From positions 9,032-73,031 of the forward strand of contig MFKV01000006.1 in the NCBI GenBank assembly GCA_001781105.1: a stretch of 64,000 bases of DNA. The letters are read 5' to 3'. This DNA is from Candidatus Kaiserbacteria bacterium RIFCSPHIGHO2_01_FULL_54_36 (GTDB lineage: Bacteria > Patescibacteriota > Minisyncoccia > Phycocordibacterales > UBA2100). The notes below the pieces were generated by a model, which searched no databases, had not been told where the DNA came from, and was given only the letters and a program-made list of their open reading frames with translations. The position numbers and the translations under genes were made by a program. Shown here piece by piece: positions 10,034-64,000 of the stretch (positions within the stretch are counted from its first letter, which is position 1; every line of letters starts with the position of its first letter).

Positions 10034-11125
10034 TTAGTAGTTCCCGTACGGATACTGCGGGTATTGATATGGCTGCGGGTACGGTTGCGAATATGGTTGC
10101 GGCTGCATGTAGTTGTAGTTCGGCGCGTAGTTGTAGTTATTGTTGTAATTGTTGTTGTAGTTATATGGCATCGAGACGTACCGCGAAGCATAGTTGTTGC
10201 CTTGATTTCCATCTGCGGCGTTGATCGAGACGCGGAAGGTGCCGGCGGTTGCCATGGTGAAGCGCAGCGTGTTGATCATGTGACCTCCTGGAGCAAGCGA
10301 TGCCTGAATAGGAGAGCTATAGGTATACCCGCTCTGAGTCGGGAGCTGGGCGGTGAATGTATACGCCCCAGTCGAGCTTCCGCCGATGTTACCGATGTCG
10401 AAGACGGCGGTCGCGAGTCCTGAAGCGTCCACAGTGACCGACGTAATGTGCACCGAGATGTCAGCCGGAGTGCGCGGCATAGGTGTTGGGTTCGGTGTTG
10501 GGGTCGGAGTAGGCGTCGGAGTGGGCGTAGGCGTTGGGGTACTCGGCGTCGTTGGGGTGGTGGTCCCTGTGCGAGGATCGACGATGATGGTGGCAGAGCC
10601 TTGTGCTTGCTTGGTGCTCGTTGAACTCGGCATGAATATCACCGAGACGGGGATACTCGTCGAGGTCGTTCCGATAAGGATACTCTGGAGCTTCAGCGCA
10701 TTGCTTCCCGAAGAGACAGTCGAAGCTGCGCCGCATGGTAGTGCCGCCATTACACCATTCGGACCTTCTGCGAGTATGTGAATATTGCCTTTGCACTGGT
10801 ACAAGAAGGCGTAGCTGCCTTTTTCGGTAGTCGAGTAGTTCCAGCTTACGGTGAACATATCACCCGAGATGACACGCGCAGGTGCTGTAACCTTGATCGT
10901 AGTTGAAGGCGTGGTGTTGAAAAGGGAAGAAAGCCATGGACTTCCGAGGTTTGCGATGTGGAAAAGGCCCCAGAGAATAATGACGATAAGAATGATGAAC
11001 CCGACGATCGCCAGAATGTTGGAAAGCATGCTGGTTTTCGGCTCGCGAGGCACTGGAGGAGGCACCGGGCGATTGATAGTCTGTACGGTCTCGGTCGTTT
11101 TGACTGTTTGTATCTCGTCGGACAT
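10034..11125 (-). CDS. N-terminally anchored surface protein with PT-repeat linker and Tyr/Asn/Gln/Pro-rich C-terminal tail
   Basis: Single TM (ILAIVGFIILIVIILWGLF). (TP)n linker TPTPTPTPTPTPTPNPTP. C-terminal low-complexity NYNNNYNNNYNYAPNYNYMQPQPYSQPYPQPYQYPQYPY. Confidence 0.55.
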   Translation of the reverse strand: MSDEIQTVKTTETVQTINRPVPPPVPREPKTSMLSNILAIVGFIILIVIILWGLFHIANLGSPWLSSLFNTTPSTTIKVTAPARVISGDMFTVSWNYSTTEKGSYAFLYQCKGNIHILAEGPNGVMAALPCGAASTVSSGSNALKLQSILIGTTSTSIPVSVIFMPSSTSTKQAQGSATIIVDPRTGTTTPTTPSTPTPTPTPTPTPTPTPNPTPMPRTPADISVHITSVTVDASGLATAVFDIGNIGGSSTGAYTFTAQLPTQSGYTYSSPIQASLAPGGHMINTLRFTMATAGTFRVSINAADGNQGNNYASRYVSMPYNYNNNYNNNYNYAPNYNYMQPQPYSQPYPQPYQYPQYPYGNY

Positions 11126-12318: not shown

Positions 12319-12411
12319 CGCAGCCCGCGAACGTCTGGCCAGCGTTTGCCCTTACCCGGCGGTCGCGCATGCGAGCATGCGCGACCGACCGGCCTTTTTT
12401 CAATTCACACC

Positions 12412-13707
12412 ATGAACGATCAATTAAAAACTCAACTACCCAAATCCGTCGTCGGCTGGTTCGACGCTTTTTTTGGGCTTGGAATAATTCTCACCCTTTT
12501 CTTTACACTGCGCGTTGTCGCCATGAGCGACCACGTGTTTTCCATACTACTGGTTGCAGGTCTCGCACTCGTGATTGGCGCGATCGAAATAGCGCGCGCT
12601 CCGTGGCGAGGGCTTCCACCATCGCAGGCATCTAGTAATGTGATCCTCAGCCGCGCTGCGTTCAAGCTCTTGGGCTTCATCGTGACGCTCGCTGTCATCG
12701 GATTTCTCTACTGGCTCTTTCCCGAATACCACCGCACGTACTACCGCTCATTCTTCGAGTCCGTGGGGATCGTCCTACCATGGTTTATTCTGCTCGCCAT
12801 CCCGTATTTCGTGTATGTCGAGTGGCGGCTTCCGAAAGAAGAGGGCGGTATGTGGAACACAGCGCTCTTCGCAACGGCGCGCTGGAGTGAGGTCGATTGG
12901 TCATGCCTCCGGCAGCACGCACTGGGATGGCTCGTGAAAGCATTCTTCTTGCCGATCATGTTTGGCGATATCGTGAATAATATCGGCGCACTGCGCGTGG
13001 CCAATTGGGACCTCGCCTCACTTGATTTCGTACCGGTCTTCACGCTTCTTTTTGATTCACTCATCCTGCTCGAACTCGTGTTCGTCTCCGCAGGGTATGT
13101 GTTTACCTGCAGGCTTTTTGATTCGCATATCCGCAGGGTAGAGGACACCCTTTTCGGCTGGACGGTCGCGCTTATATCCTACACGCCGTTTCTCGGACTC
13201 TTTTATGTCCGATACTTTAATTACAGTGCCGACAACATTGACTGGTTGGTGTGGCTCGGCGCAAATCCCAAGCTGGTCGTCGCATGGGGCTCAGCGATCC
13301 TTGTGTTACTTTTTCTCCACCTGTGGAGTGACGCGTGTTTCGGCCTTCGCTTCTCCAACCTTACAAATCGCGGGATCATTACCAACGGGCCGTTCCGTTT
13401 TTGTAAACACCCGGCATATCTGATCAAGAATCTCCGCTGGTGGCTCGTTTCGGTCCCGTTCATTGCACTCGATCCGGTTGAGGGCTTACGGCTATCGCTA
13501 CTACTTGTGTGTGTGAATATGTTGTACACCGTGCGCGGGTATACGGAGGAGAAACTTCTCTCACGCGACCCCACGTACGTTGCGTATGCGAAGTGGATGG
13601 AAGATCACAGCCTTCTGCGGTTTTTGAAGCGGATCCCTATCTTTTCGTATGAGTGGCGACTTGCGCGGTGGCAGCGAATGTGGCCCGATGTATACCCCGG
13701 CGTATAA
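12412..13707 (+). CDS. polytopic membrane protein with C-terminal isoprenylcysteine carboxyl methyltransferase / phospholipid methyltransferase-like domain
   Basis: Many TM helices. C-terminal GPFRFCKHPAYLIKNLRWW matches the ICMT/PEMT family signature (G-x-Y/F…RHP-x-Y). Start chosen at MNDQLK; the upstream in-frame extension is unlikely. Confidence 0.5.
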   Translation: MNDQLKTQLPKSVVGWFDAFFGLGIILTLFFTLRVVAMSDHVFSILLVAGLALVIGAIEIARAPWRGLPPSQASSNVILSRAAFKLLGFIVTLAVIGFLYWLFPEYHRTYYRSFFESVGIVLPWFILLAIPYFVYVEWRLPKEEGGMWNTALFATARWSEVDWSCLRQHALGWLVKAFFLPIMFGDIVNNIGALRVANWDLASLDFVPVFTLLFDSLILLELVFVSAGYVFTCRLFDSHIRRVEDTLFGWTVALISYTPFLGLFYVRYFNYSADNIDWLVWLGANPKLVVAWGSAILVLLFLHLWSDACFGLRFSNLTNRGIITNGPFRFCKHPAYLIKNLRWWLVSVPFIALDPVEGLRLSLLLVCVNMLYTVRGYTEEKLLSRDPTYVAYAKWMEDHSLLRFLKRIPIFSYEWRLARWQRMWPDVYPGV

Positions 13708-13861: not shown

Positions 13862-15703
13862 ATGAATACAGTGCAAATGGCGTTCAGAAAATACTGGGCG
13901 ATTTTCTTTTTTATAGGTGTTGTTGCATCCGTAATCGCATTTCTTGAAATAGCACCATTGACGGTATCGTCGACTTCTCACAGTGTTTTGGGAACCCATG
14001 TCTTATATGCCGATGGTGACGGAGGAGGCGATGGTGGTGGCGATGGCGGTGGAGATGGTGGCGGAGATGGTGGCGGAGATGGCGGTGGAGATGGAGGAGG
14101 TGATGGCGGTGGAGATGGTGGCGGAGATGGCGGAGGCGACGGAGGCGGTGATGGCGGAGGCGACGGAGGCGGTGACGGAGGAGGCGATGGTGGTGGTGAT
14201 GGCGGAGGTTGTGTCAGAAACTGCATCCCTGTGACGCCCCCTGGCTGCATCATTATCATCAAAGAAACGTTCGATGCGCAAGGCAATCCTATTACACCAG
14301 TCGCGCAGTTTACGTTTCGGCTCGACAATTCGCGCACTGCCCAAAACGACGCTTCGGGGAGAGTGACATTCACGAATGTGTCTGCGGGCTTCCATTCGGT
14401 CTCGGAGATCGTGCCGTCTGGCTGGACTCTTTTCTCGGTCACCCCACAAAACGGCTCCGTGTTTGTGAGCTCTGGGGTGAATTGCGCAACGGTAGTCTTC
14501 AAAAACAGGCAAACTGTCCCACCACAGAGCTGCATCACGGTGATCAAAGAAACCTACGATACACAGGGCAATCCTATTACACCGGTCGCGCAATTTACGT
14601 TCAGTCTCGACGGGGTTCGCACGATACAAAACGACGGCTCAGGTCGCGCAACGTTCAACAACGTGTTGCCCGGCAGCCATCAAATTACAGAGCAGGTCCC
14701 CCTTGGCTGGACGCTTTTTTCGGTGACGCCAACAAACGGGATCGTCCAGGTTACTTCTGGCACCAATTGTGCGGCGGTTATTTTCAAGAACAGGCAAACG
14801 ATCCCGCAATGTCCACCCGGCCAGGTCGGCACGTACCCAAATTGTCACGAGCAGCAATGTCCACCCGGTCAGATCGGTACCTATCCCAATTGCAGCATTC
14901 CACAGTGCCCACCGGGACAGACGGGAGTCTATCCCAACTGTATTCCCAACCAGTGTCCTCCGGGCCAGATCGGGACCTACCCCAATTGCAGCATTCCACA
15001 GTGCCCACCTGGCCAAACGGGGACGTATCCGTACTGCATCCCAAATCAGTGTCCGAGCGGCTACACGGGTACCTATCCAAATTGTTACCCGCCGCAGTGC
15101 CCTTCAGGCTACATAGGCACGTATCCAAGTTGTTACCCACCTCAACAAAATCTATACTGCACGCTCACCGCAAGCATCACCTCGATATACAATGGCCAGG
15201 CAGTCTATCTCTCCTGGACTTCGACGGGCGCTACCTCGGCATCCCTCGATTCCGTGGGCCAAGTCGGCGTATTCGGCTCGTACACGATCTACCCGCAACA
15301 CTCACGCGTATACACGCTCACCGTATACGATTCACAGGGTCGCTCCAACAATTGCCAGGTCTCGATCTCGGTGAACCCGGCGTACATCCCGCCTCCTCCG
15401 TACTTCCCGCCACCGCCACAATATATTCCACCACCACCTCAGTACATCCCGCCTCCGCAATATATCCCGCCGCCTACTTCCCAGATCTCTCTAGTACAGA
15501 TCCCATACACCGGGTTCGACTTCGGACCGGTAGGGAATGCGATCTACTGGCTCGCCATGCTCCTCTTCGCCTTTGCGCTGACCTACCTACTCCTGTACTA
15601 CCAAGGTGGGTTCTGGGTTCTTATGGTCGTCGCGATCCGATACCAGGCGCAACTGTGGGAGTTGGGACTGCAAAGAATAGGCCTCTCCTCAAGGACGCAA
15701 TAG
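13862..15703 (+). CDS. large surface protein: signal anchor, (DGGG)x26 repeat, two CnaB-type domains, eight CPPGQxGTYPNC repeats, conserved C-terminal module, PPPPQYI repeats, IPYTG sortase-type sorting signal
   Basis: Domains read directly from the translation. CnaB-like …RTAQNDASGRVTFTNVSAGFHSVSEIVPSGWTL… appears twice. The C-terminus SLVQIPYTGFDFGPVGNAIYWLAMLLFAFALTYLLLYY is an LPXTG-like motif plus a hydrophobic segment. A sortase gene lies downstream. Confidence 0.7.
   Translation: MNTVQMAFRKYWAIFFFIGVVASVIAFLEIAPLTVSSTSHSVLGTHVLYADGDGGGDGGGDGGGDGGGDGGGDGGGDGGGDGGGDGGGDGGGDGGGDGGGDGGGDGGGDGGGDGGGCVRNCIPVTPPGCIIIIKETFDAQGNPITPVAQFTFRLDNSRTAQNDASGRVTFTNVSAGFHSVSEIVPSGWTLFSVTPQNGSVFVSSGVNCATVVFKNRQTVPPQSCITVIKETYDTQGNPITPVAQFTFSLDGVRTIQNDGSGRATFNNVLPGSHQITEQVPLGWTLFSVTPTNGIVQVTSGTNCAAVIFKNRQTIPQCPPGQVGTYPNCHEQQCPPGQIGTYPNCSIPQCPPGQTGVYPNCIPNQCPPGQIGTYPNCSIPQCPPGQTGTYPYCIPNQCPSGYTGTYPNCYPPQCPSGYIGTYPSCYPPQQNLYCTLTASITSIYNGQAVYLSWTSTGATSASLDSVGQVGVFGSYTIYPQHSRVYTLTVYDSQGRSNNCQVSISVNPAYIPPPPYFPPPPQYIPPPPQYIPPPQYIPPPTSQISLVQIPYTGFDFGPVGNAIYWLAMLLFAFALTYLLLYYQGGFWVLMVVAIRYQAQLWELGLQRIGLSSRTQ
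14012..14208 (+). repeat. 12-bp tandem repeat (GATGGNGGNGGN)x~16 encoding (DGGG)n
   Basis: Direct reading of near-identical 12-nt units with synonymous third-position variation. Confidence 0.85.
14806..15140 (+). repeat. 39-bp tandem coding repeat x8 (QCPPGQIGTYPNCSIP)
   Basis: Eight consecutive units with conserved Cys spacing. Confidence 0.8.
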
Positions 15704-15718: not shown

Positions 15719-16441
15719 TTGACATTGGGCCATTTATGGTGTATTATCTCGCCCTCTATGAGTTTTGACCATACGTCTCCGCAGACTCCTCCAAAAGGGG
15801 TGTACTTGGCGAGTGTCATCGTCGTCTTTTTCTGTACGCTCAGCGTCGCCGACTCTGTGGGCTTCGTGCCGTACTACATTGATGGCACACTCCCGACCGC
15901 TTCTGCCGATCCTGTGACCGTTGATTCAGTGATGCTTTCAAATTTGCCGCAGCTTGGCGAAGACTCTACCGGAACGGTTGAAATTCCTACAGGAGAAGTG
16001 GTGCTCCCCGAGCGGCTCAAGATCCCAGCGATCTCGCTCGATCTTCCCGTACAAAATCCCAACACCCGCGACACCAAGGCGCTCGACCTCATCATCCAAA
16101 AAGGCCCCGCGCGCTACGTGGACTCAGCAAAGCTCGGGGAGAAGGGCAACATGATCATCTACGCACACTCTTCCGTGTACCCAGTATTGCGCAACCAAAT
16201 GTGGAAGGCGTTCAATCGCATTCACGAGCTCCAGGTCGGCGATCCGATCACGCTCGAGGCAGGAGGCAAGCAGTATGTCTACACCGTGAGCGCCGTGCGA
16301 CAAGTGGATACTGCCGACACGATCATTGACCTCTCGCCCACGCAAGGCACGAAGCTCACGCTCGTTACCTGCGACATCGCGACCGGCAAAACTGCCCGCT
16401 TCATCGTCGAGGCAGACTTCGTCGGCATTGTCGGTCAATAA
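15719..16441 (+). CDS. sortase family transpeptidase
   Basis: N-terminal TM anchor. Catalytic LTLVTC motif, with Arg 13 residues downstream (TARFIVEA) and a His in IIYAHSS. Sits directly downstream of an IPYTG substrate gene. Confidence 0.7.
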   Translation: MTLGHLWCIISPSMSFDHTSPQTPPKGVYLASVIVVFFCTLSVADSVGFVPYYIDGTLPTASADPVTVDSVMLSNLPQLGEDSTGTVEIPTGEVVLPERLKIPAISLDLPVQNPNTRDTKALDLIIQKGPARYVDSAKLGEKGNMIIYAHSSVYPVLRNQMWKAFNRIHELQVGDPITLEAGGKQYVYTVSAVRQVDTADTIIDLSPTQGTKLTLVTCDIATGKTARFIVEADFVGIVGQ

Positions 16442-16447
16442 GAAAAT

Positions 16448-17122
16448 ATGTCACGCGCTAAAACACTTATCTCAATCCTTATCGTTATGGGAATCGCCTC
16501 GGCTCCCGTTGTCGAAGCGGCGACCTATTATGAGATCGGCACACCTGTCTCGATCGGACAACCTGCCTCGTATGCGTATCCCTTTTCGTACGGCATGCCC
16601 GCAACGGCAGGGTATGCCACACCGGCTGGATACAGTCAGACAGTGGGTTTCCCCGCATCGGCAGGATATCCAGCGGCAGTAGGCTATGGCGTCTCAGTTG
16701 GTTCTCCCGTGAGCGTCGGGCATCCAGTTTCTGTTGGCCGTCCCGTAAACGTCGGCTATCCAGTCAACGTGGGCTATCCCGTGAATGTCGGATACCCGGT
16801 CAATATCGGCTATCCGGTAAACGTCGGTCGCCCTGTAGATATAGGTCGGCCAGTTGACGTTGCTCATCCAGTGGACATTGGACGTGTCGTTGATATCGGT
16901 CATGTCGTTGAGATCGCGCACGCAGTAGATCTCTACGGCCCCGGGAAACTTTTCGCACTTGTAAGCATAGGGGAGGGGGTAGCTGTAGGTCGTGCTGTCG
17001 ATATTGCGCACTCGGTCACGATCGCTCACGCCGTCACGATCGCCCGCCCGGTAGATATCGCCCACGCTGTCGAGGTAGGGTACGCTGTACCGGTCGGCCG
17101 CGGCTACACTTTAGCGAAATAA
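16448..17122 (+). CDS. secreted protein made of ~25 tandem hexapeptide repeats (x-P-V-x-V/I-G)
   Basis: Signal peptide MSRAKTLISILIVMGIASAPVVEA. Repeats GYPVNVGYPVNVGYPVNIGYPVNVGRPVDIGRPVDV… The antisense ORF 16694-17065 is a repeat artefact. Confidence 0.6.
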   Translation: MSRAKTLISILIVMGIASAPVVEAATYYEIGTPVSIGQPASYAYPFSYGMPATAGYATPAGYSQTVGFPASAGYPAAVGYGVSVGSPVSVGHPVSVGRPVNVGYPVNVGYPVNVGYPVNIGYPVNVGRPVDIGRPVDVAHPVDIGRVVDIGHVVEIAHAVDLYGPGKLFALVSIGEGVAVGRAVDIAHSVTIAHAVTIARPVDIAHAVEVGYAVPVGRGYTLAK

Positions 17123-17774: not shown

Positions 17775-18095
17775 ATGGGGTTCTTCACACGCCTAATTGG
17801 GAGGGGCCTCTTCAAAGCGACGGCTCTTCTTATCGGCTTTGCGGGTGCTGCTGGTCTGTTTGTCGTCGATCCAAAAAAATATGCGGTCGCAGTCAAACTG
17901 AATCAGGAATACATTGGCACGTGGATTGCTTGGCTTCTAGGTAAGCTACCGCACGTCGGTGCTCACCTGGAGGCTTTTCTCGCAACCCACAGCCCTGGAT
18001 TCACCCTACTAGTCGTGGAGGTAGCGGTACTCGCCAAGCTGATTATGCTTGGCTCCCGCTTGTGCTTTCGTCTCACTCCTCCGCGGCGCGACTGA
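17775..18095 (+). CDS. small membrane protein, hypothetical
   Basis: 106 aa, two or three TM helices. Strong SD AAGGAGG 6 nt upstream. Confidence 0.5.
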   Translation: MGFFTRLIGRGLFKATALLIGFAGAAGLFVVDPKKYAVAVKLNQEYIGTWIAWLLGKLPHVGAHLEAFLATHSPGFTLLVVEVAVLAKLIMLGSRLCFRLTPPRRD

Positions 18096-19574: not shown

Positions 19575-19738
19575 CAATTTCTCGATACGAGCCAATTCCT
19601 TGGATCGCGCCGAGCTCTCGCAAGAGAGCTATGTAAAAATCGTGAAGTACTTGACAGGCGAGAAATATCAAGTATAATCGCGCCGTTCAGCTAATTAACA
19701 ATATTATTAGTTTTTGAGACATTAATTAATACACGATT

Positions 19739-21193
19739 ATGACAAATGCATCGATAAAGAATACGTTTGCAACTCTCGCTGTTGTCGCGCTTGCGATGGC
19801 GGTTTCTTTCGGCACATTTGCCACAATCGTGCGTGCGGACGATGATCTTGGCTACTATGGCACGTCTGAAAACTACTATGGCACGGACTCCAGTGACCTC
19901 GGCTACTACGGTACGTCCGATAACCTTGGGTATTGGGGAACCGACTCAGGTGATCTCGGTTACTACGGCACGTCCGACAACCTCGGCTATTTTGGCACTG
20001 ATTCTGGTGATCTTGGTTACTACGGCACCTCGGATAATCTCGGGTACTACGGTACTTCCGATAACGATCTCGGCTACTACGGCACGTCCGACAACCTCGG
20101 CTACTACGGAACTCAAGAAGAGGTTTTCGGCACGGATGTCTACGGTACTGATGTCATCGAAGAGCACGGCGTCGGATACTCGTATCACGAATATGAGAAC
20201 GATTTCTCGCAGAGCTACTCTTCGCCTTCCTGTTACTCTTGTTCCTCTTCTTCAAAGCCATTCAGCTTCTCGGCTCCTTCTACCTACTACCCGCCGAGCC
20301 GTCCTCAGAGCTATCCGGCTCCGCAGCCTCAGTCACAACCTCGTCCGCAGCAATTCCCGGTCTTCTATCCGCAGCAACAGCAGCAGCAACAGCAGCAACA
20401 GCAACAGGGAAGCGCGCAGCCGATCAACATCAACAACGTCAACAACAATAACAACGTCAACCAGAACACCAACACGAATCCGGTGACCGTGACGACGGTT
20501 ATACCTGTGACGCAGGCACCGATTACGTATCCGGTACAGTACGTCTACCCGCAACAGCCTGTCTATCCGACTCCTCCTGCCCCGAACCTCTACTGTGTCA
20601 TCTCTGTCTCGCCAAGCACGATCTCGAATGGTCAGGCAGCGTACCTCACGTGGAGCTCGACAGGTGCTACGAGCGCATGGCTCTCTGACGGAATCGGCAA
20701 TGTCTCGATCAACGGCTCACTCGCAGTTCGCCCGAACAACTCGAAGACCTATACACTTACGGTCTCTGGCTACGGCGGTACTCGTACCTGCAACGTCTAC
20801 GTCAGCGTCAACAATGCGTATCCGTACGTCTCACTCTCGCAGATCCCATACACAGGCTTTACCCTGGGGCCGCTCGGCAACGCGCTCTACTGGCTCTCGA
20901 TGCTCAGCTTCGCAGCCGCTGGTGCCTACCTCTTGGTTTACTACAAAGGCGGTGCATTCACGCTCGCCTCTGCAATGATCGGCCAGCGCTCGGTCAATCG
21001 CTCTGAAATAGAAGTGCCTGCAGGAGACGTAGAACCTATCGAAACTCCCGTAGAACCTACTCCGAGCCCGGTCCAGATGGAAATGCTTGAGAATCTCCCA
21101 ATCGCACCGGCCAGCTTCCGCTCCATCGACAGCATGAAGCTCATGCACGGTACCGAGGGCAGCGCTCCGCGCATCGTGATCACTCGCAACTAA
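19739..21193 (+). CDS. second IPYTG-type surface protein: signal peptide, (DLGYYGTSDN)x~10 repeats, poly-Q, Asn-rich tract, conserved C-terminal module, IPYTG signal
   Basis: C-terminal ~110 aa align with the 13862 protein (LYC..S.S.I.NGQA.YL.W.STGATSA … SL.QIPYTGF..GP.GNA.YWL.ML.FA…YLL.YY.GG). Low-complexity repeats are read directly. Confidence 0.65.
   Translation: MTNASIKNTFATLAVVALAMAVSFGTFATIVRADDDLGYYGTSENYYGTDSSDLGYYGTSDNLGYWGTDSGDLGYYGTSDNLGYFGTDSGDLGYYGTSDNLGYYGTSDNDLGYYGTSDNLGYYGTQEEVFGTDVYGTDVIEEHGVGYSYHEYENDFSQSYSSPSCYSCSSSSKPFSFSAPSTYYPPSRPQSYPAPQPQSQPRPQQFPVFYPQQQQQQQQQQQQGSAQPININNVNNNNNVNQNTNTNPVTVTTVIPVTQAPITYPVQYVYPQQPVYPTPPAPNLYCVISVSPSTISNGQAAYLTWSSTGATSAWLSDGIGNVSINGSLAVRPNNSKTYTLTVSGYGGTRTCNVYVSVNNAYPYVSLSQIPYTGFTLGPLGNALYWLSMLSFAAAGAYLLVYYKGGAFTLASAMIGQRSVNRSEIEVPAGDVEPIETPVEPTPSPVQMEMLENLPIAPASFRSIDSMKLMHGTEGSAPRIVITRN
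19838..20115 (+). repeat. 30-bp tandem coding repeat (DLGYYGTSDN)
   Basis: About nine or ten consecutive units. Confidence 0.75.
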
Positions 21194-21228
21194 TTTCGCC
21201 GCCGCCTCAAGCGCTCCAAGGTGAAAAC

Positions 21229-21259
21229 AAAAACTCTCCTGAAAAGGAGAGTTTTTGTT
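21229..21259. terminator. bidirectional terminator between convergent genes
   Basis: AAAAACTCTCC-TGAAAA-GGAGAGTTTTT: a perfect hairpin flanked by A- and T-runs. Confidence 0.7.
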
Positions 21260-22995
21260 TAAGCGGCCCGAGTTTGTATCTCTTCTTTCAACCTCGCAAT
21301 GATTTCGGCAATAGGGAAGGCGCCGATCTTTCCTGCGCGGCCTTCGAGCGTTGCGGTCTTCGCCCTCATTTCCTCGTCGCCAACGACGAGCACATACGGG
21401 ATCTTTTCCACCTTGCTGCTGCGGATACGCTTGCCGAGGGAGTCCGAGTCGTGCAGATCTGCGCGAATACCAGTGGCGAGAAGTTGGTCCTGAAGCTCTT
21501 TCGCGTATTCTGAGAATTTGTCGGAGACTGGAAGCACGCGCGCTTGTACCGGCGCCATCCATAGTGGGAATGCTCCAGCATAGTGTTCGATGAGGATCCC
21601 GAGAAATCGGTCAGGCGAGCCGATCAACGCGCGGTGGATCATGACCGGGGTTTTGGCCCTCCCATCCTCTCCTGTGTATTCAAGTTTAAATCGGGAAGGC
21701 TGAACGAAATCGAGCTGGATCGTCGAGATCTGCCACTGCCTCCCGATCGCATCGACCGCCATAATGTCTATCTTGGGCCCATAGAAAGCTGCCTCACCCA
21801 CTGCCTCTTTGAACTCAACTCCTTTCTTCTGCAGCAGTTCTCGCATAATCGTTTGCGCGTGTTCCCACACTGCGGGATCACCAAGGTATTTTTCACCGTT
21901 CTCTGGGTCTCGGAGCGAGAAGCGCATCCAATAATCGATCCTGTACGTTGCGAGCGCTTCTTGGATGGCGCTCAAAACAGCGGACACTTCAGATTCGATC
22001 TGGTCCTCGCGACAGAAGATGTGACCGTCATCTTGTGCGAATGCCCGCAATCGAGTAAGGCCCGAAAGTTCGCCCGGCCGCTCATCGCGATACAGATTTG
22101 CAAAATCCGCATAACGAATGGGGAGGTCGCGATAGCTGCGCATCTGCGAGGCATAGATCTGCGTGTGTTGGGGACAGTTCATCGGCTTCATGTACATCTC
22201 GTCAGCGACATACTGCGAAGAGACCTTGAGCATGTCGTCTTTGAACGCATCGTAGTGACCAGAGATCTTGAAGAGTTCAGCCTTGTTGATGTTGGGAGTA
22301 TGCACCTCACCGAACCCAAGTTTGTCGTTGAGTTCCCGGGAGTAATTGACGATGGCATTGCGGACAATGTTGCCTTTTGGGGTGTAGAGCGGCATGCCGG
22401 AGCCGACCAAGTCGGAAAATACCAGTAGCCCTTGCTCTCGAGCGATCTTCCGGTGATCCCGCTTTTTCGCTTCCTCGCGCTGCTTCAGATACGCGTCGAG
22501 TTCCTGCTTGGAAGGGAAGGCGAGACCGTAGATGCGCGTGAGCATTTTGTTCTTTTCGTCTCCGCGCCAGTAGGCCCCAGCGATGCGATCCAACTTGAAA
22601 GAATCCGGAGCGATTTCTTTAGCCGGGTTTTCCACGTGGCCGCCGCGGCAGAGGTCCACTAGTCCTGGCGCATTGTGAAAAGTAATCTTTTTACCCTGGC
22701 CTGCGAACTCTTCGATAAGTTCGCTTTTGTATGTGTTCCACGCGAATTCTTTCAGAGCTTCTTCCTTGCTCACTTCTTTCTTCTCGAAACCAGTCCATTT
22801 TGGCAAGAGTTCCCGCATTTTCGCTTCTATCTTTGGCAGATCGGCATCGCTTATTGTTCCCGCAATTTCAAAATCTTGATAAAAGCCGTTGTCGATCGAG
22901 GGGCCGATCGCATTTTGGGATCCAGGCCATAACTCGCGCACCGCGGCTACGGTGAGGTGTGCGAGGGTGTGCCCAATTTGTTCAATTTCGGCCAT
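21259..22995 (-). CDS. thrS: threonine--tRNA ligase (short form lacking N-terminal TGS/editing extension)
   Basis: Class II motifs. HDSDSLGKRIRS… anticodon-binding tail. Zn-binding CPQHTQ…H. Confidence 0.85.
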   Translation of the reverse strand: MAEIEQIGHTLAHLTVAAVRELWPGSQNAIGPSIDNGFYQDFEIAGTISDADLPKIEAKMRELLPKWTGFEKKEVSKEEALKEFAWNTYKSELIEEFAGQGKKITFHNAPGLVDLCRGGHVENPAKEIAPDSFKLDRIAGAYWRGDEKNKMLTRIYGLAFPSKQELDAYLKQREEAKKRDHRKIAREQGLLVFSDLVGSGMPLYTPKGNIVRNAIVNYSRELNDKLGFGEVHTPNINKAELFKISGHYDAFKDDMLKVSSQYVADEMYMKPMNCPQHTQIYASQMRSYRDLPIRYADFANLYRDERPGELSGLTRLRAFAQDDGHIFCREDQIESEVSAVLSAIQEALATYRIDYWMRFSLRDPENGEKYLGDPAVWEHAQTIMRELLQKKGVEFKEAVGEAAFYGPKIDIMAVDAIGRQWQISTIQLDFVQPSRFKLEYTGEDGRAKTPVMIHRALIGSPDRFLGILIEHYAGAFPLWMAPVQARVLPVSDKFSEYAKELQDQLLATGIRADLHDSDSLGKRIRSSKVEKIPYVLVVGDEEMRAKTATLEGRAGKIGAFPIAEIIARLKEEIQTRAA

Positions 22996-61837: not shown

Positions 61838-62203
61838 CCTCGGACATTTCCGCTAGGGCTACTCGCGCCTAGATGTCTAGGTTTGGCGCTTCTCCTCGCC
61901 ATTGCCCGCCTGCGGGCGGGTGGCTCGGGCGCCATGCTGTTTGGGGGAAGGAAGGAATCCTCCCCCCAGCTTCGGTCTCCTCCTCGCAGTGGTTTGCTAG
62001 AGTATTCAGTGCTTTATTTCGGTTAGTGGTTTGCGTGTGTCTTTGCCTTCGTTTTATGTGCCTTCGGAGTCCGCCCTCGCACAACCCCCTTCCTCGTTTT
62101 CAAAATAGCTTTCGTGGTGTCGCTTTCGCTTTGGATTTCTGTATTGCAAGATAACGGCGGCGCTCATCCAAGGGCATGGACGCCCTAGCGGAAATGTCCG
62201 AGG
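61838..62203. mobile_element. MITE-like unit bounded by perfect 22-bp inverted repeats (CCTCGGACATTTCCGCTAGGGC)
   Basis: IR copies at 61838-61859 and 62182-62203 are exact reverse complements. Internal sequence is non-coding. Confidence 0.5.
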
Positions 62204-62288
62204 CGCAAATACCTCTGTGCTTGCCCCTCCCACCCTGTGCGCGCACATCCCGCCCGCGAAGATTAGAAGGGATCGCGGGCGGGGCTCC

Positions 62289-63515
62289 CTAGAGTTTGGA
62301 ACGCAAATTCCTCAGATTCTCAAGAAGTTCATCGTACAAAATAAAGCTGATGTTTTTTAGCGACACACCGAGCTTTCGAAAATCACCAGATTCTTTCTTG
62401 TTCTTGAATTGACTACTTGTACCGGCAATAATATATCCGCGTGGACGGACAACACGAATATCAACGCCTTTCTTTTTCTTTACCGCGCGTACATAATCAT
62501 CAGCATTTCTGACGATTTCGTCTATATAATTTTCAATTTGAGATATTGCCTTTACTATGTCCGGTTTCCAATAGTAATTATCGTGGCTTTCATCCAGTGC
62601 CATGAGTGGAGTTTCGTGTCGCTTAATCTCAAAAACATCAACAAATCCATATACATCAGCCAACACAAAATCAGGGTAACTGACACTAATGCTCACATTC
62701 TGCTTTTCAATGGTCGTAACATAGTTCGCGAGGAAGCGAAAAACCTTTTCACTTAAAAACTTTTGCCAGTCATTTTCGGAAATTATTTTCTTGGCGAGAT
62801 TTCCCTCAAACTCTTTTATTACCTCATCGAGAAAAATCTTGTCTGTAACTTTTTTTGTCTCTCGAATAAGTGCGCTTCTTTCGACTTTAACTCCTTTTCT
62901 CTTTCCTTTGAGAGATGTTTCAAATATCTTTGGGAAAAAGTTTTTCAATGCCTCCAAATCTTCCTCATTCAGTTTTTGTGCAACCTTTTTTCTACGAAAA
63001 AGAGCGGCAACTTCACCACCTCTATAATCATCAAAATCTTCAGTGGAAATTCTGATCTGTTTAGGAAATTTTGTGCTCAAAAACGAAGCAACTTCGCTCC
63101 GTAAGTCGTTATTACTATCCTCGTTTATTCGTCCCAAGCGTACCAAAAGATTCTTTACATCAATAAGAGGAAGTGTCACGGAAGTTTTTAGCGTATTCTT
63201 TTTGACAGACTTGGTTTTCTTGGTAATCGTAAACTCCAAGAGTTTATTAGACGCAAGATTATCTTTCAGTGCAGATAGTAAAAAAGTACCCTTCTTACCA
63301 AATCCATAGCCATTCCTGTTTAGATACAAACCAGACGGAAGACCTTGGTAGCCATTTAAAATAATTTTGGAAAGAAATTTTGCCTGACCTCCTTGCAGAT
63401 AGTAAATTGTTCTATTTTGTTTGCGATAAACTTCATACACGCAAAAAGTACCTTTTTCTGAATCAAAGTGTTGTTCCGGTTTTTCTTCTACTTTTTTGGT
63501 ACTCTTTTTTGCCAT
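62289..63515 (-). CDS. Shedu/DUF4263-like PD-(D/E)xK nuclease (candidate anti-phage defense protein)
   Basis: Very low GC. C-terminal SYPDFVLADVYGFVDVFEIKRHETPL…AISQIENY fits a D…(D/E)xK…QxxxY restriction-endonuclease-like core, as in DUF4263. The N-terminus is a variable basic region. The family call rests on recalled pattern only. Confidence 0.5.
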   Translation of the reverse strand: MAKKSTKKVEEKPEQHFDSEKGTFCVYEVYRKQNRTIYYLQGGQAKFLSKIILNGYQGLPSGLYLNRNGYGFGKKGTFLLSALKDNLASNKLLEFTITKKTKSVKKNTLKTSVTLPLIDVKNLLVRLGRINEDSNNDLRSEVASFLSTKFPKQIRISTEDFDDYRGGEVAALFRRKKVAQKLNEEDLEALKNFFPKIFETSLKGKRKGVKVERSALIRETKKVTDKIFLDEVIKEFEGNLAKKIISENDWQKFLSEKVFRFLANYVTTIEKQNVSISVSYPDFVLADVYGFVDVFEIKRHETPLMALDESHDNYYWKPDIVKAISQIENYIDEIVRNADDYVRAVKKKKGVDIRVVRPRGYIIAGTSSQFKNKKESGDFRKLGVSLKNISFILYDELLENLRNLRSKL

Positions 63516-63517
63516 AA

Positions 63518-63967
63518 TTAAATCTTGCCAGAATTTACCAATGCAGGGGTAAGAAAATAAACTTGTTGTGTTGGTGATCCGCGCTCCACCTTTATCTCGG
63601 AATAGAATTTATTGCCGTCTGAATTTTCGTATTCAAATCGCACCACGGTCGAAATTGATGGTTGAATCCTTTTTTCGTCGTGAAAATTTATCATCCTTGC
63701 AGTACCCGGACTTTTAACTCTTATGTAGTCTATGGGACCATTGAAATTCCATATCTCCGTAGGCACGTCTCGAAACATTTCTGTAGTTTCTTTAATATTC
63801 TTTGCGGTGTCAGTCCCCACATTCCGAAGAAATAAACCCGCATTGTCTGGTGTTTCTATTACTAATTTTGGAGTTTTGCTTGATAAGTAAGCTTTGTACG
63901 CATAACAAGCGGCGGCAATAGCGGCGATGGCAGAAACGATTCCTATAGTTAAATTTACATAGTCCAT
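63518..63967 (-). CDS. membrane-anchored hypothetical protein, translationally coupled upstream partner of the nuclease
   Basis: 149 aa with N-terminal TM (LTIGIVSAIAAIAAACYAY). Its stop is 2 nt from the nuclease ATG. Same low GC. Confidence 0.45.
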   Translation of the reverse strand: MDYVNLTIGIVSAIAAIAAACYAYKAYLSSKTPKLVIETPDNAGLFLRNVGTDTAKNIKETTEMFRDVPTEIWNFNGPIDYIRVKSPGTARMINFHDEKRIQPSISTVVRFEYENSDGNKFYSEIKVERGSPTQQVYFLTPALVNSGKI

Positions 63968-64000
63968 GTTTTTATTTTCCAGATTTCCGACGATTATCGT

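Follow-up and report, generated by a model that had tools for sequence, protein, structure and literature searches.

Classically, the signal recognized by a sortase is made up of a motif, then a hydrophobic helix, then a short basic tail; among the proteins sorted in this way are the chaplins, which are substrates of class E sortases. Here we describe a stretch of 64,000 nucleotides (nt) from Candidatus Kaiserbacteria bacterium RIFCSPHIGHO2_01_FULL_54_36 (contig MFKV01000006.1; hereafter the window), which encodes a sortase and two proteins (protein 1 and protein 2) that share a C-terminal region containing the sequence IPYTG. The best explanation of our data is that both genes encode Sec-exported surface proteins bearing a lineage-specific LPXTG-type cell-wall sorting signal. 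The QIPYTG signal, together with the conserved tail that follows it in protein 2, is a real, conserved and undescribed variant of LPXTG-type sorting.

Kaiserbacteria belong to the Parcubacteria group of the Patescibacteria (NCBI taxonomy), and sortases are common in the candidate phyla radiation (CPR) (PMC6744442). In the searchable literature, IPYTG is found in unrelated contexts only, and no paper joins Kaiserbacteria with a sortase. Likewise, we found neither the QIPYTG signal nor the tail classes reported below described in Pfam, NCBIfam or the searchable literature, and the same is true of long, conserved cytoplasmic tails on sortase substrates. That the leaving group of a sortase reaction can matter in its own right has a precedent in Streptococcus gordonii, where the C-peptide left by sortase A cleavage is reported to have its own function (as cited in PMC11502775).

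The shared C-terminal region and its Ig-like stalk

Residues 404-592 of protein 1 aligned with residues 263-414 of protein 2 at E=2e-34, with 85/191 identities (45%; BLASTP with compositional adjustment), and the sole large gap was a 27-residue Pro-rich insert (PPPPQYIPPP...) in protein 1. Because all of the remaining segment pairs between the two proteins gave E>4, we regard their N-terminal parts as unrelated. A preliminary description of the window had proposed exactly this arrangement, i.e., two open reading frames (ORFs) that share about 110 amino acids (aa) at the C terminus and nothing before it, and the alignment, which runs over non-repetitive sequence, supports it on both counts. The N-terminal parts had also been described as low-complexity repeats. 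The DGGG, CPPGQ, DLGYYGTSDN and poly-Q/poly-N arrays were indeed recovered at the DNA level by Tandem Repeats Finder, but protein 1 additionally contains two globular repeats of 89 aa (71% mutual identity), with weak SpaA/prealbumin-like matches in Pfam.

Protein 2 begins with a signal peptide (aa 1-33; MTNASIKNTFATLAVVALAMAVSFGTFATIVRA followed by DDD, as read from the sequence), whose sequence (MTNAS...) matches those of orthologs, and continues through D/Y/G-rich DLGYYGTSDN repeats (aa 34-150) and an S/P/Q/Y-rich region with poly-Q and poly-N (aa 151-283) to the Ig-like module, the QIPYTG signal and a long tail. Protein 1 runs from a signal peptide or transmembrane (TM) segment (a hydrophobic N terminus, again read from the sequence) through (DGGG)n, the two SpaA-like repeats, seven CPPGQxGTYPNC repeats, the Ig-like module and a Pro-rich spacer to the QIPYTG signal and a 32-aa tail. 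That the common module is fused to variable repeat cargo was thereby borne out. Units of the form CPAGY...C, which resemble the Cys-rich repeats of protein 1, were also seen at the N terminus of a homolog of protein 2 (P0003, of class A as defined below), where they give a faint cEGF match, which hints at a shuffling of small disulfide-knot modules between different IPYTG paralogs.

The module is family specific, as had been supposed: neither Pfam nor NCBIfam has a model for it, and its occurrence is confined to Kaiserbacteria/Paceibacteria, in which profile searches returned hundreds of homologs. However, what had been taken for one anchoring or stalk domain of about 110 aa resolves into two separable parts, an Ig-like stalk domain and then a sorting signal. 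The Ig-like part (about 73 aa) is missing from 22/131 full-length class-A orthologs and is present in 2-5 copies in others, and because of its absence from those 22 we place the anchoring function in the QIPYTG signal and TM helix.

In an AlphaFold2 (AF2) model of protein 2 aa 278-484, for which a 37-sequence alignment served as input, aa 285-358 form an eight-stranded beta-sandwich with a mean local confidence (pLDDT) of ~97. Foldseek searches of the PDB with this domain returned generic Ig-like folds (SoxY, macroglobulin MG, CD4 and PKD) at probability 1.0, with a best E of ~1e-3 and TM(target) of 0.5-0.6, and a weak BiPBP_C match on protein 1 was the sole Pfam match for the Ig-like fold. 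We thus read the predicted structure as an Ig/PKD-like beta-sandwich whose resemblance to these proteins is at the level of the fold only. Every complete copy of the module collected from the family with the sandwich profile (135/135) has two Cys and no more, one in the first strand and one in the last, separated by 62-70 residues. A disulfide had been considered possible; the Cys are a conserved pair, and the domain is probably a disulfide-stapled Ig-like stalk.

The QIPYTG signal and the neighboring sortase

In the 37-sequence alignment, the columns L, Q, I, P, Y, T and G are invariant (L-x-Q-I-P-Y-T-G), and among 174 representatives (50% identity clustering), QIPYTG is 99-100% conserved, with P, T and G at 100%. 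The consensus of the whole signal is [VI]-[SA]-L-[ST]-Q-I-P-Y-T-G-[FL]-D-[FL]-G-x-x-G-N-A-x-Y-W followed by a TM helix, and the flanks are themselves strongly conserved, with P-Y-V-S-L-[ST] on the N-terminal side of the motif and F-D-F-G-P-x-G-N-A-x-Y-W...F-A...A-Y-L on its C-terminal side. In the AF2 model, IPYTG lies in a low-confidence linker (pLDDT 57-61) about 9 residues ahead of a TM helix at aa 378-401 (model residues 101-124; pLDDT 87-93), and basic residues flank the helix. A six-frame scan of the window found IPYTG with a hydrophobic stretch at two sites only, nt 15500 and 20843. The same signal is also found with canonical basic endings of 30-42 aa, e.g., ...ATLVARRFV and ...YYYRLQRA, and two such short-tail paralogs gave subthreshold matches to curated anchor models, NF033073 (E=5.5e-5, 23 bits against a cutoff of 48) and PF00746 (E=0.017, 15.5 bits against 20). 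NCBIfam models of the PEP-CTERM/exosortase, PGF-CTERM/archaeosortase, GlyGly-CTERM/rhombosortase and similar systems matched neither the full proteins nor the isolated signals.

The sortase, which is the only one in the window, starts 54 nt past protein 1, and a distance of 3.3 kb separates it from protein 2 further downstream. In addition to the Pfam model (Table 1), it passes the general NCBIfam model TIGR01076 (42.4 against a cutoff of 39.35), and when it is aligned to the solved sortases 2kw8 and 5go6, their catalytic His, Cys and Arg are matched within its AHS(S), LVTCD and TARF segments. Every one of the NCBIfam sortase classes scored far below its cutoff, the best being class E (50.9 bits against 160), and we therefore leave the sortase unassigned to a class. 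Comparison with orthologs points to the ATG at 15758 as the likely true start. The TTG at 15719 belongs to the -35 hexamer of a promoter-like site directly upstream, and because the -10 element of this site ends about 10 nt before the ATG, the sortase mRNA may be leaderless; promoter-like sites in the region number 10, against 3.8 expected from shuffles. Elsewhere, a same-strand sortase was found 0.8-5.4 kb upstream of the class-A gene (median, 3.2 kb) in 28/51 loci with a full 6-kb flank. Because of the invariant P-x-T-G ahead of a TM helix, the signal peptides, the short-tail versions of the signal and the intact sortase nearby, sortase processing is the best-supported account of these proteins.

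Table 1. Positions of the genes, protein parts and putative regulatory sites discussed here, numbered from the first nucleotide of the window
Feature	Position	Strand	Description
Protein without Pfam family	10034..11125	-	Divergent neighbor of the sortase
ICMT/PEMT-like protein	12346..13707	+	453 aa
Protein 1	13862..15703	+	613 aa
Protein 1, Cys-rich repeats	14792..15136	+	aa 311-425; seven 16-aa units, C-P-P-G-Q-x-G-T-Y-P-N-C, two Cys each
Protein 1, Ig-like two-Cys module	15155..15373	+	aa 432-504; matched by profile from protein 2 module, E=4e-26
Protein 1, sorting signal and TM helix	15482..15604	+	QISLVQIPYTGFDFGPVGNAIYW; aa 541-581; IPYTG at nt 15500-15514
Protein 1, post-TM tail	15605..15700	+	32 aa, net +2
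Promoter-like site of sortase	15719..15758		11/12; sigma-70-type, near consensus
Sortase	15758..16441	+	PF04203, E=4e-22, 78.7 bits (cutoff, 26.6); N-terminal TM helix
Hexapeptide-repeat protein	16448..17122	+	Secreted; GYPVNV-type repeats
Promoter-like site of protein 2	19651..19678	+	TTGACA-16-TATAAT; 12/12 sigma-70-type consensus; ~60 nt 5' of ATG
Protein 2	19739..21193	+	484 aa; class-A IPYTG protein
Protein 2, Ig-like two-Cys beta-sandwich	20591..20809	+	aa 285-357; Cys286 and Cys351
Protein 2, sorting signal and TM helix	20813..20947	+	NAYPYVSLSQIPYTGFTLGPLGNALYW; aa 359-403; IPYTG at nt 20843-20857
Protein 2, tail part 1	20948..21085	+	Predicted juxtamembrane helix GGAFTLASAMIG (AF2, aa 406-414), then linker aa 415-449
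Protein 2, tail part 2	21086..21190	+	Conserved C-terminal element LENLPIAPASFRSIDSMKLMHGTEGSAPRIVITRN; aa 450-484
Hairpin, likely terminator	21224..21260		AAAACTCTCC-TGAAAA-GGAGAGTTTT, flanked by A and T runs; read from sequence
SduA_C-domain protein (Shedu)	62289..63515	-	E=3e-25

The long tail, its classes and the genes around it

Protein 2 continues for 111 residues after the TG of its motif and 81 after the Lys that flanks the TM helix (62 and 32, respectively, in protein 1), in agreement with the preliminary description, which had noted some 80 aa past the hydrophobic segment and called the tail atypical. The tail is indeed real and atypical. About 85 species and hundreds of clusters share it, with the stop at exactly the same place. 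In the AF2 model, the TM helix is followed by a short helix at aa 406-414 (10-residue blocks with mean pLDDT of 68 and 59), a disordered stretch of about 50 residues (pLDDT 52-59) and a beta-hairpin made up of DSMKLM (aa 464-469) and RIVITR (aa 478-483; pLDDT 72-86). The linker at aa 415-449 is disordered, Pro/Glu/Val-rich and net acidic, and both its length and its sequence vary among orthologs. Judging from the model, GGAFTLASAMIG, which forms a second hydrophobic patch, does not have the length needed to cross the membrane. Since the predicted topology is N-out and basic residues lie beside the helix, we infer that the tail is cytoplasmic. The hairpin past the stop codon is likely a bidirectional terminator between protein 2 and the convergent ThrRS gene; we therefore take the stop codon as the genuine end of the ORF and the tail as part of the genuine product.

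A search with the C-terminal 207 aa of protein 2 returned 42 proteins, several of which cover 96-99% of the query, and the tail is therefore conserved. With a profile of signal, TM helix and tail (A2), we collected 708 clusters (50% identity) at E<=1e-3, 316 at E<=1e-10 and 98 at E<=1e-30. The best 150 of the 708 match the profile over essentially its whole length (positions 1-4 to 127-128), except for P0127 (positions 1-58 of its best stretch), and in nearly all of these 150 the match reaches the C terminus of the protein or comes within one residue of it. GTDB species genomes held 257 relatives, and the best 80 of the 257 are all from metagenome-assembled genomes (MAGs) of Kaiserbacteria/Paceibacterota type.

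The tails fall into several classes. Class A, the commonest, extends for 86-149 residues after TG and ends in a nearly invariant peptide, ...[TK]-D-[ST]-M-x-h-x-x-S-x-x-G-x-x-P-[RK]-I-[VI]-I-x-R-x-COOH, with conservation over the last positions of P95 R93 I91 V83 I89 x R98 x-COOH; in nearly all of the ~85 species the stop codon falls one residue past the Arg, and an h-L-P-[VTIA] element is conserved about 10 residues upstream of D-S-M. Class B (57-59 residues after TG) has an RFSFAxEVKxAMRNQxR helix, class B-prime (about 57) ends in ...KVAVKLDAVRG or ...ALRIDSIRG, class D (74-85) carries ...LQYKAFxNVxAxAAAPI...RR, and class C (30-42) finishes in the short basic residues of canonical signals; in one more subclass, the PRIVI end is found together with a juxtamembrane IRAGKxQ helix. 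Protein 2 is typical of class A and the single ORF of the window to end in ...PRIVITRN (six-frame scan). Because the tail ends in so strongly conserved a motif, we regard it as a functional addition and not as a mere spacer. The tail of protein 1 is without the PRIVI end; it has a clear counterpart in P0031 only and is loosely like class B-prime (P0031, P0186 and P0187).

Across the window and 84 loci, we found a PRIVI terminus on no protein other than those with IPYTG, and the isolated tails of the window proteins matched nothing in Pfam or NCBIfam at E<=10. A profile of the tail by itself (A3), built from the final 44 aa of 46 diverse members, had no match in a collection of 5.8 billion proteins or among PDB sequences; the family itself was not retrieved either, the profile being too short for these databases, and we draw no conclusion on absence from this result.

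The gene order around class-A genes is kept, and runs GyrB, a membrane protein without a Pfam family (reverse strand), sortase, secreted hexapeptide-repeat protein, variable small genes, class-A gene, often a second IPYTG paralog, ThrRS (reverse strand), DnaE (reverse strand) and RNase HII. ThrRS lies downstream and convergent in 68/79 class-A loci. In the window, three extra genes, which encode a DUF4189 protein, an ICMT-like protein and protein 1, separate the membrane protein from the sortase. In many relatives (L018, L029, L035, L044, L047 and L048), a second IPYTG paralog stands directly 3' of the class-A gene, with a tail of 57-59 aa of the RFSFAxEVKxAMRNQ or KVAVKLDAVRG type; the window has no gene at that place. 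Protein-1-like paralogs do occur between class A and ThrRS in L018, L047 and L048, and protein 1 appears to be the relocated counterpart of this second paralog.

The window as a whole is a core-genome stretch, encoding PheT, GyrB, ThrRS, DnaE, RNase HII, NusB, RNase III, SMC, RpoB/C, DnaG and RpoD, and it matches Candidatus Kaiserbacteria/Paceibacterota MAGs in both gene order and sequence (GyrB at ~80% and DnaE at ~73% identity in L005). Small secreted-protein ORFs at 17.2-19.5 kb had raised the suspicion of a chimeric assembly, which we rejected because L074 carries homologs of the genes at 18049 and 18923 at the corresponding place, with synteny in the flanks as well.

Several neighboring genes deserve comment. 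The membrane protein divergent from the sortase is kept in 18 loci, and its orthologs (L005, L006 and L011) appear by eye to be single-pass membrane proteins with a Tyr/Gln/Pro-rich C terminus. Directly 5' of protein 1 is a member of the isoprenylcysteine carboxyl methyltransferase (ICMT) family, also PEMT-like and polytopic by eye, whose homologs occur near IPYTG paralogs in L070 and L071 only; any link between a membrane carboxyl-methyltransferase and conserved free C termini is pure speculation. The secreted protein directly 3' of the sortase consists almost entirely of its hexapeptide repeats, has weak LbH/LpxA-like matches and no sorting signal of its own, and is found next to the sortase in no fewer than 15 related loci of Kaiserbacteria. 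A beta-helical protein of the surface or wall, with a functional link to the sortase, is one possibility for it. At the window edge, the Shedu gene sits where GC content falls to 0.40 (62001..64000), against about 0.54, and this stretch is probably an acquired anti-phage defense island.

A proposed mechanism, its rivals and related systems

On balance, we lean toward the view that both proteins are sortase substrates and that the leaving-group peptide of protein 2 has gained a conserved cytoplasmic docking module. The exported precursor would be held in the membrane by its TM helix until the neighboring membrane-anchored sortase cuts between the Thr and Gly of IPYTG (peptide VSLSQIPYTGFDFG) and passes the ectodomain to the cell wall. 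The shared region of ~110 aa would then represent a sorting signal behind a membrane-proximal Ig-like stalk, and the class-A cytoplasmic extension would consist of a juxtamembrane helix, an acidic variable tether and the predicted LP...D-S-M...P-R-I-V-I-x-R-x-COOH hairpin. The terminal peptide may dock on a conserved cytoplasmic partner or may self-associate through beta-sheet pairing. Acting before cleavage, it could position or cluster the precursor, and acting after cleavage, it could be the functional part of the membrane-bound C-peptide. We suggest docking because a variable, disordered tether leads to a near-invariant C terminus that is hydrophobic on both faces of its last strand, a combination typical of docking or oligomerizing elements. 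T-G cleavage, linkage to peptidoglycan and the docking role of the tail are all predictions from sequence. If the tail is functional, the sortase paradigm would be extended to a leaving group that acts as an effector or docking module.

A bolder form of this idea is that the leaving group is itself the conserved functional module, such that wall attachment of the ectodomain releases a membrane-tethered PRIVI peptide that binds an intracellular partner, and that the four or more tail classes make up a tail code for one sortase. We consider this doubtful. If true, a major CPR lineage that is still uncultivated would couple surface display to an intracellular process such as division, host attachment, wall growth or feedback on expression, and the tail code would give the substrates of a single sortase different fates or readouts.

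Several observations weigh against sortase processing combined with tail docking. The window proteins gave no match to curated LPXTG-anchor hidden Markov models (HMMs; PF00746 and NCBIfam), even at E<=10 and with isolated signals. The 81-aa tail of protein 2 has 6 K/R against 10 D/E and is thus net acidic, in place of the short positively charged tail of a sorting signal. Within and just ahead of the TM helix, the residues FDFGPxGNAxYW...AYL show much stronger conservation than is usual for a sorting signal, and they could have a role instead of, or besides, sortase recognition. No sortase was found within 6 kb in 23/51 loci, and in the window the sortase is not the immediate operon partner of protein 2. 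The terminal hairpin is predicted with moderate confidence, and an isolated hairpin is not a stable fold. Finally, no partner for the tail stands out among the conserved neighbors, which are either housekeeping proteins (GyrB, ThrRS, DnaE, RNase HII and NusB) or secreted and membrane proteins.

Some of these points would also fit with protein 2 being a permanent, uncleaved bitopic membrane protein, in which QIPYTGFDFG is a juxtamembrane or TM-packing motif and the tail ties the ectodomain to a cytoskeletal, division or signaling partner, in the manner of a receptor or landmark protein. The unusual conservation of the TM and juxtamembrane residues, a cytoplasmic terminus that is nearly invariant, a long and net acidic tail unlike those of sorting signals, the silence of the curated anchor HMMs and a core-genome syntenic position of the kind expected of a housekeeping component would all be accommodated. 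Nevertheless, we consider it unlikely. P-x-T-G, the core recognized by sortases, is 100% invariant, the identical motif is carried by paralogs with canonical short basic tails, and an intact sortase has been kept in a neighborhood where the IPYTG proteins are the sole candidate substrates. The preliminary description had raised the idea that processing may depart from canonical LPXTG anchoring; because the same signal occurs with short basic tails and an intact sortase is adjacent, the evidence leans toward ordinary sortase cleavage of the IPYTG proteins.

Alternatively, the proteins might be sortase substrates whose tail is no more than a handle or degron by which an FtsH-type protease or AAA+ unfoldase clears the TM stub. 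FtsH needs a cytoplasmic tail of at least ~20 residues to engage membrane substrates, and a disordered linker leading to a conserved extreme C terminus at a fixed distance from the carboxylate is what a terminus-recognizing protease would call for. Against this, short-tail paralogs coexist in the same lineage without such a handle, the existence of several conserved tail classes suggests class-specific functions and not generic disposal, and the predicted hairpin, hydrophobic on both faces, looks more like a binding or oligomerization element. We therefore rate a purely disposal-related tail as improbable.

Motifs of the IPxTG type are known from streptococcal pilins such as RrgB, which raises the idea that the IPYTG proteins are pilins polymerized by the sortase into a covalent pilus; the motif does begin with Ile and not Leu, an Ig-like domain precedes the signal, and CPR cells are known for their reliance on surface appendages. 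However, the 37-sequence alignment shows no invariant or near-invariant Lys that could serve as nucleophile, the Ig-like module is missing in 22/131 class-A proteins, the proteins are mostly low complexity and not built of tandem pilin domains, and the one sortase in the window is not class C by NCBIfam. We rejected this highly improbable reading. An artifact (chance low-complexity similarity, frameshift, read-through or misassembly), which the abundance of low-complexity repeats in both proteins might bring to mind, is refuted by the compositionally adjusted alignment and by the recurrence of tail and stop across species and clusters, quite apart from the likely terminator after the stop and the synteny of the neighbors with Kaiserbacteria MAGs, and its probability is negligible.

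For practical purposes, L[ST]QIPYTG[FL] and P-R-I-V-I-x-R-x-COOH are simple and specific markers, useful both in annotating which surface proteins of these organisms are sorted and in the design of assays of sortase substrates. The signal also offers a handle on envelope biogenesis in Kaiserbacteria, whose surface proteins are mostly annotated as hypothetical.

How, then, does this system compare with those already described? As with other Ig-like, PKD-like and SoxY-like stalk domains, the sandwich of ~75 residues stands between cargo and anchor and is sometimes found in tandem, but it differs from these in the invariant Cys pair of its first and last strands and in that the protein 2 copy has no Pfam match. 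Class E sortases and the LAXTG substrates of Actinobacteria are similar in that class E gives the best NCBIfam score here, that Streptomyces SrtE (5go5/5go6) is among the closest solved relatives and that class E substrates include low-complexity or amyloid-prone surface proteins. The differences are that the score reaches 51 bits against a cutoff of 160, that Pro takes the place of Ala as the second residue of the motif and that the host is a CPR bacterium. As described in PMC11502775, the C-peptide of S. gordonii is also a TM fragment in the membrane that is able to interact with a membrane or cytoplasmic component; there, however, an ordinary short stub acts through its TM segment on a histidine kinase, while here the fragment would carry a dedicated cytoplasmic extension of ~80 residues with a conserved terminal module of its own, and no two-component system is adjacent.

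The LPXTG-type signals themselves (sortase A/E/F substrates; PF00746) share with the IPYTG proteins a signal peptide, a [LIV]-P-x-T-G motif about 9 residues before a helix of ~23 residues, basic residues after the helix and a nearby sortase. In contrast to them, the motif is fixed as QIPYTG within conserved flanks (VSLSQ... and ...FDFGPxGNAxYW), the curated HMMs stay below threshold, most members have 57-150 residues after TG instead of ~30-40, and the class-A tail, with its net acidic charge, has a conserved structured motif at its end in place of a short Lys/Arg cluster. Because the short basic tail and the curated-model match fail while the other features agree, we class the QIPYTG signal as a divergent variant of the LPXTG type and not as a member of that family. 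The short-tail paralogs of the lineage, with their weak matches to curated models, look fully canonical.

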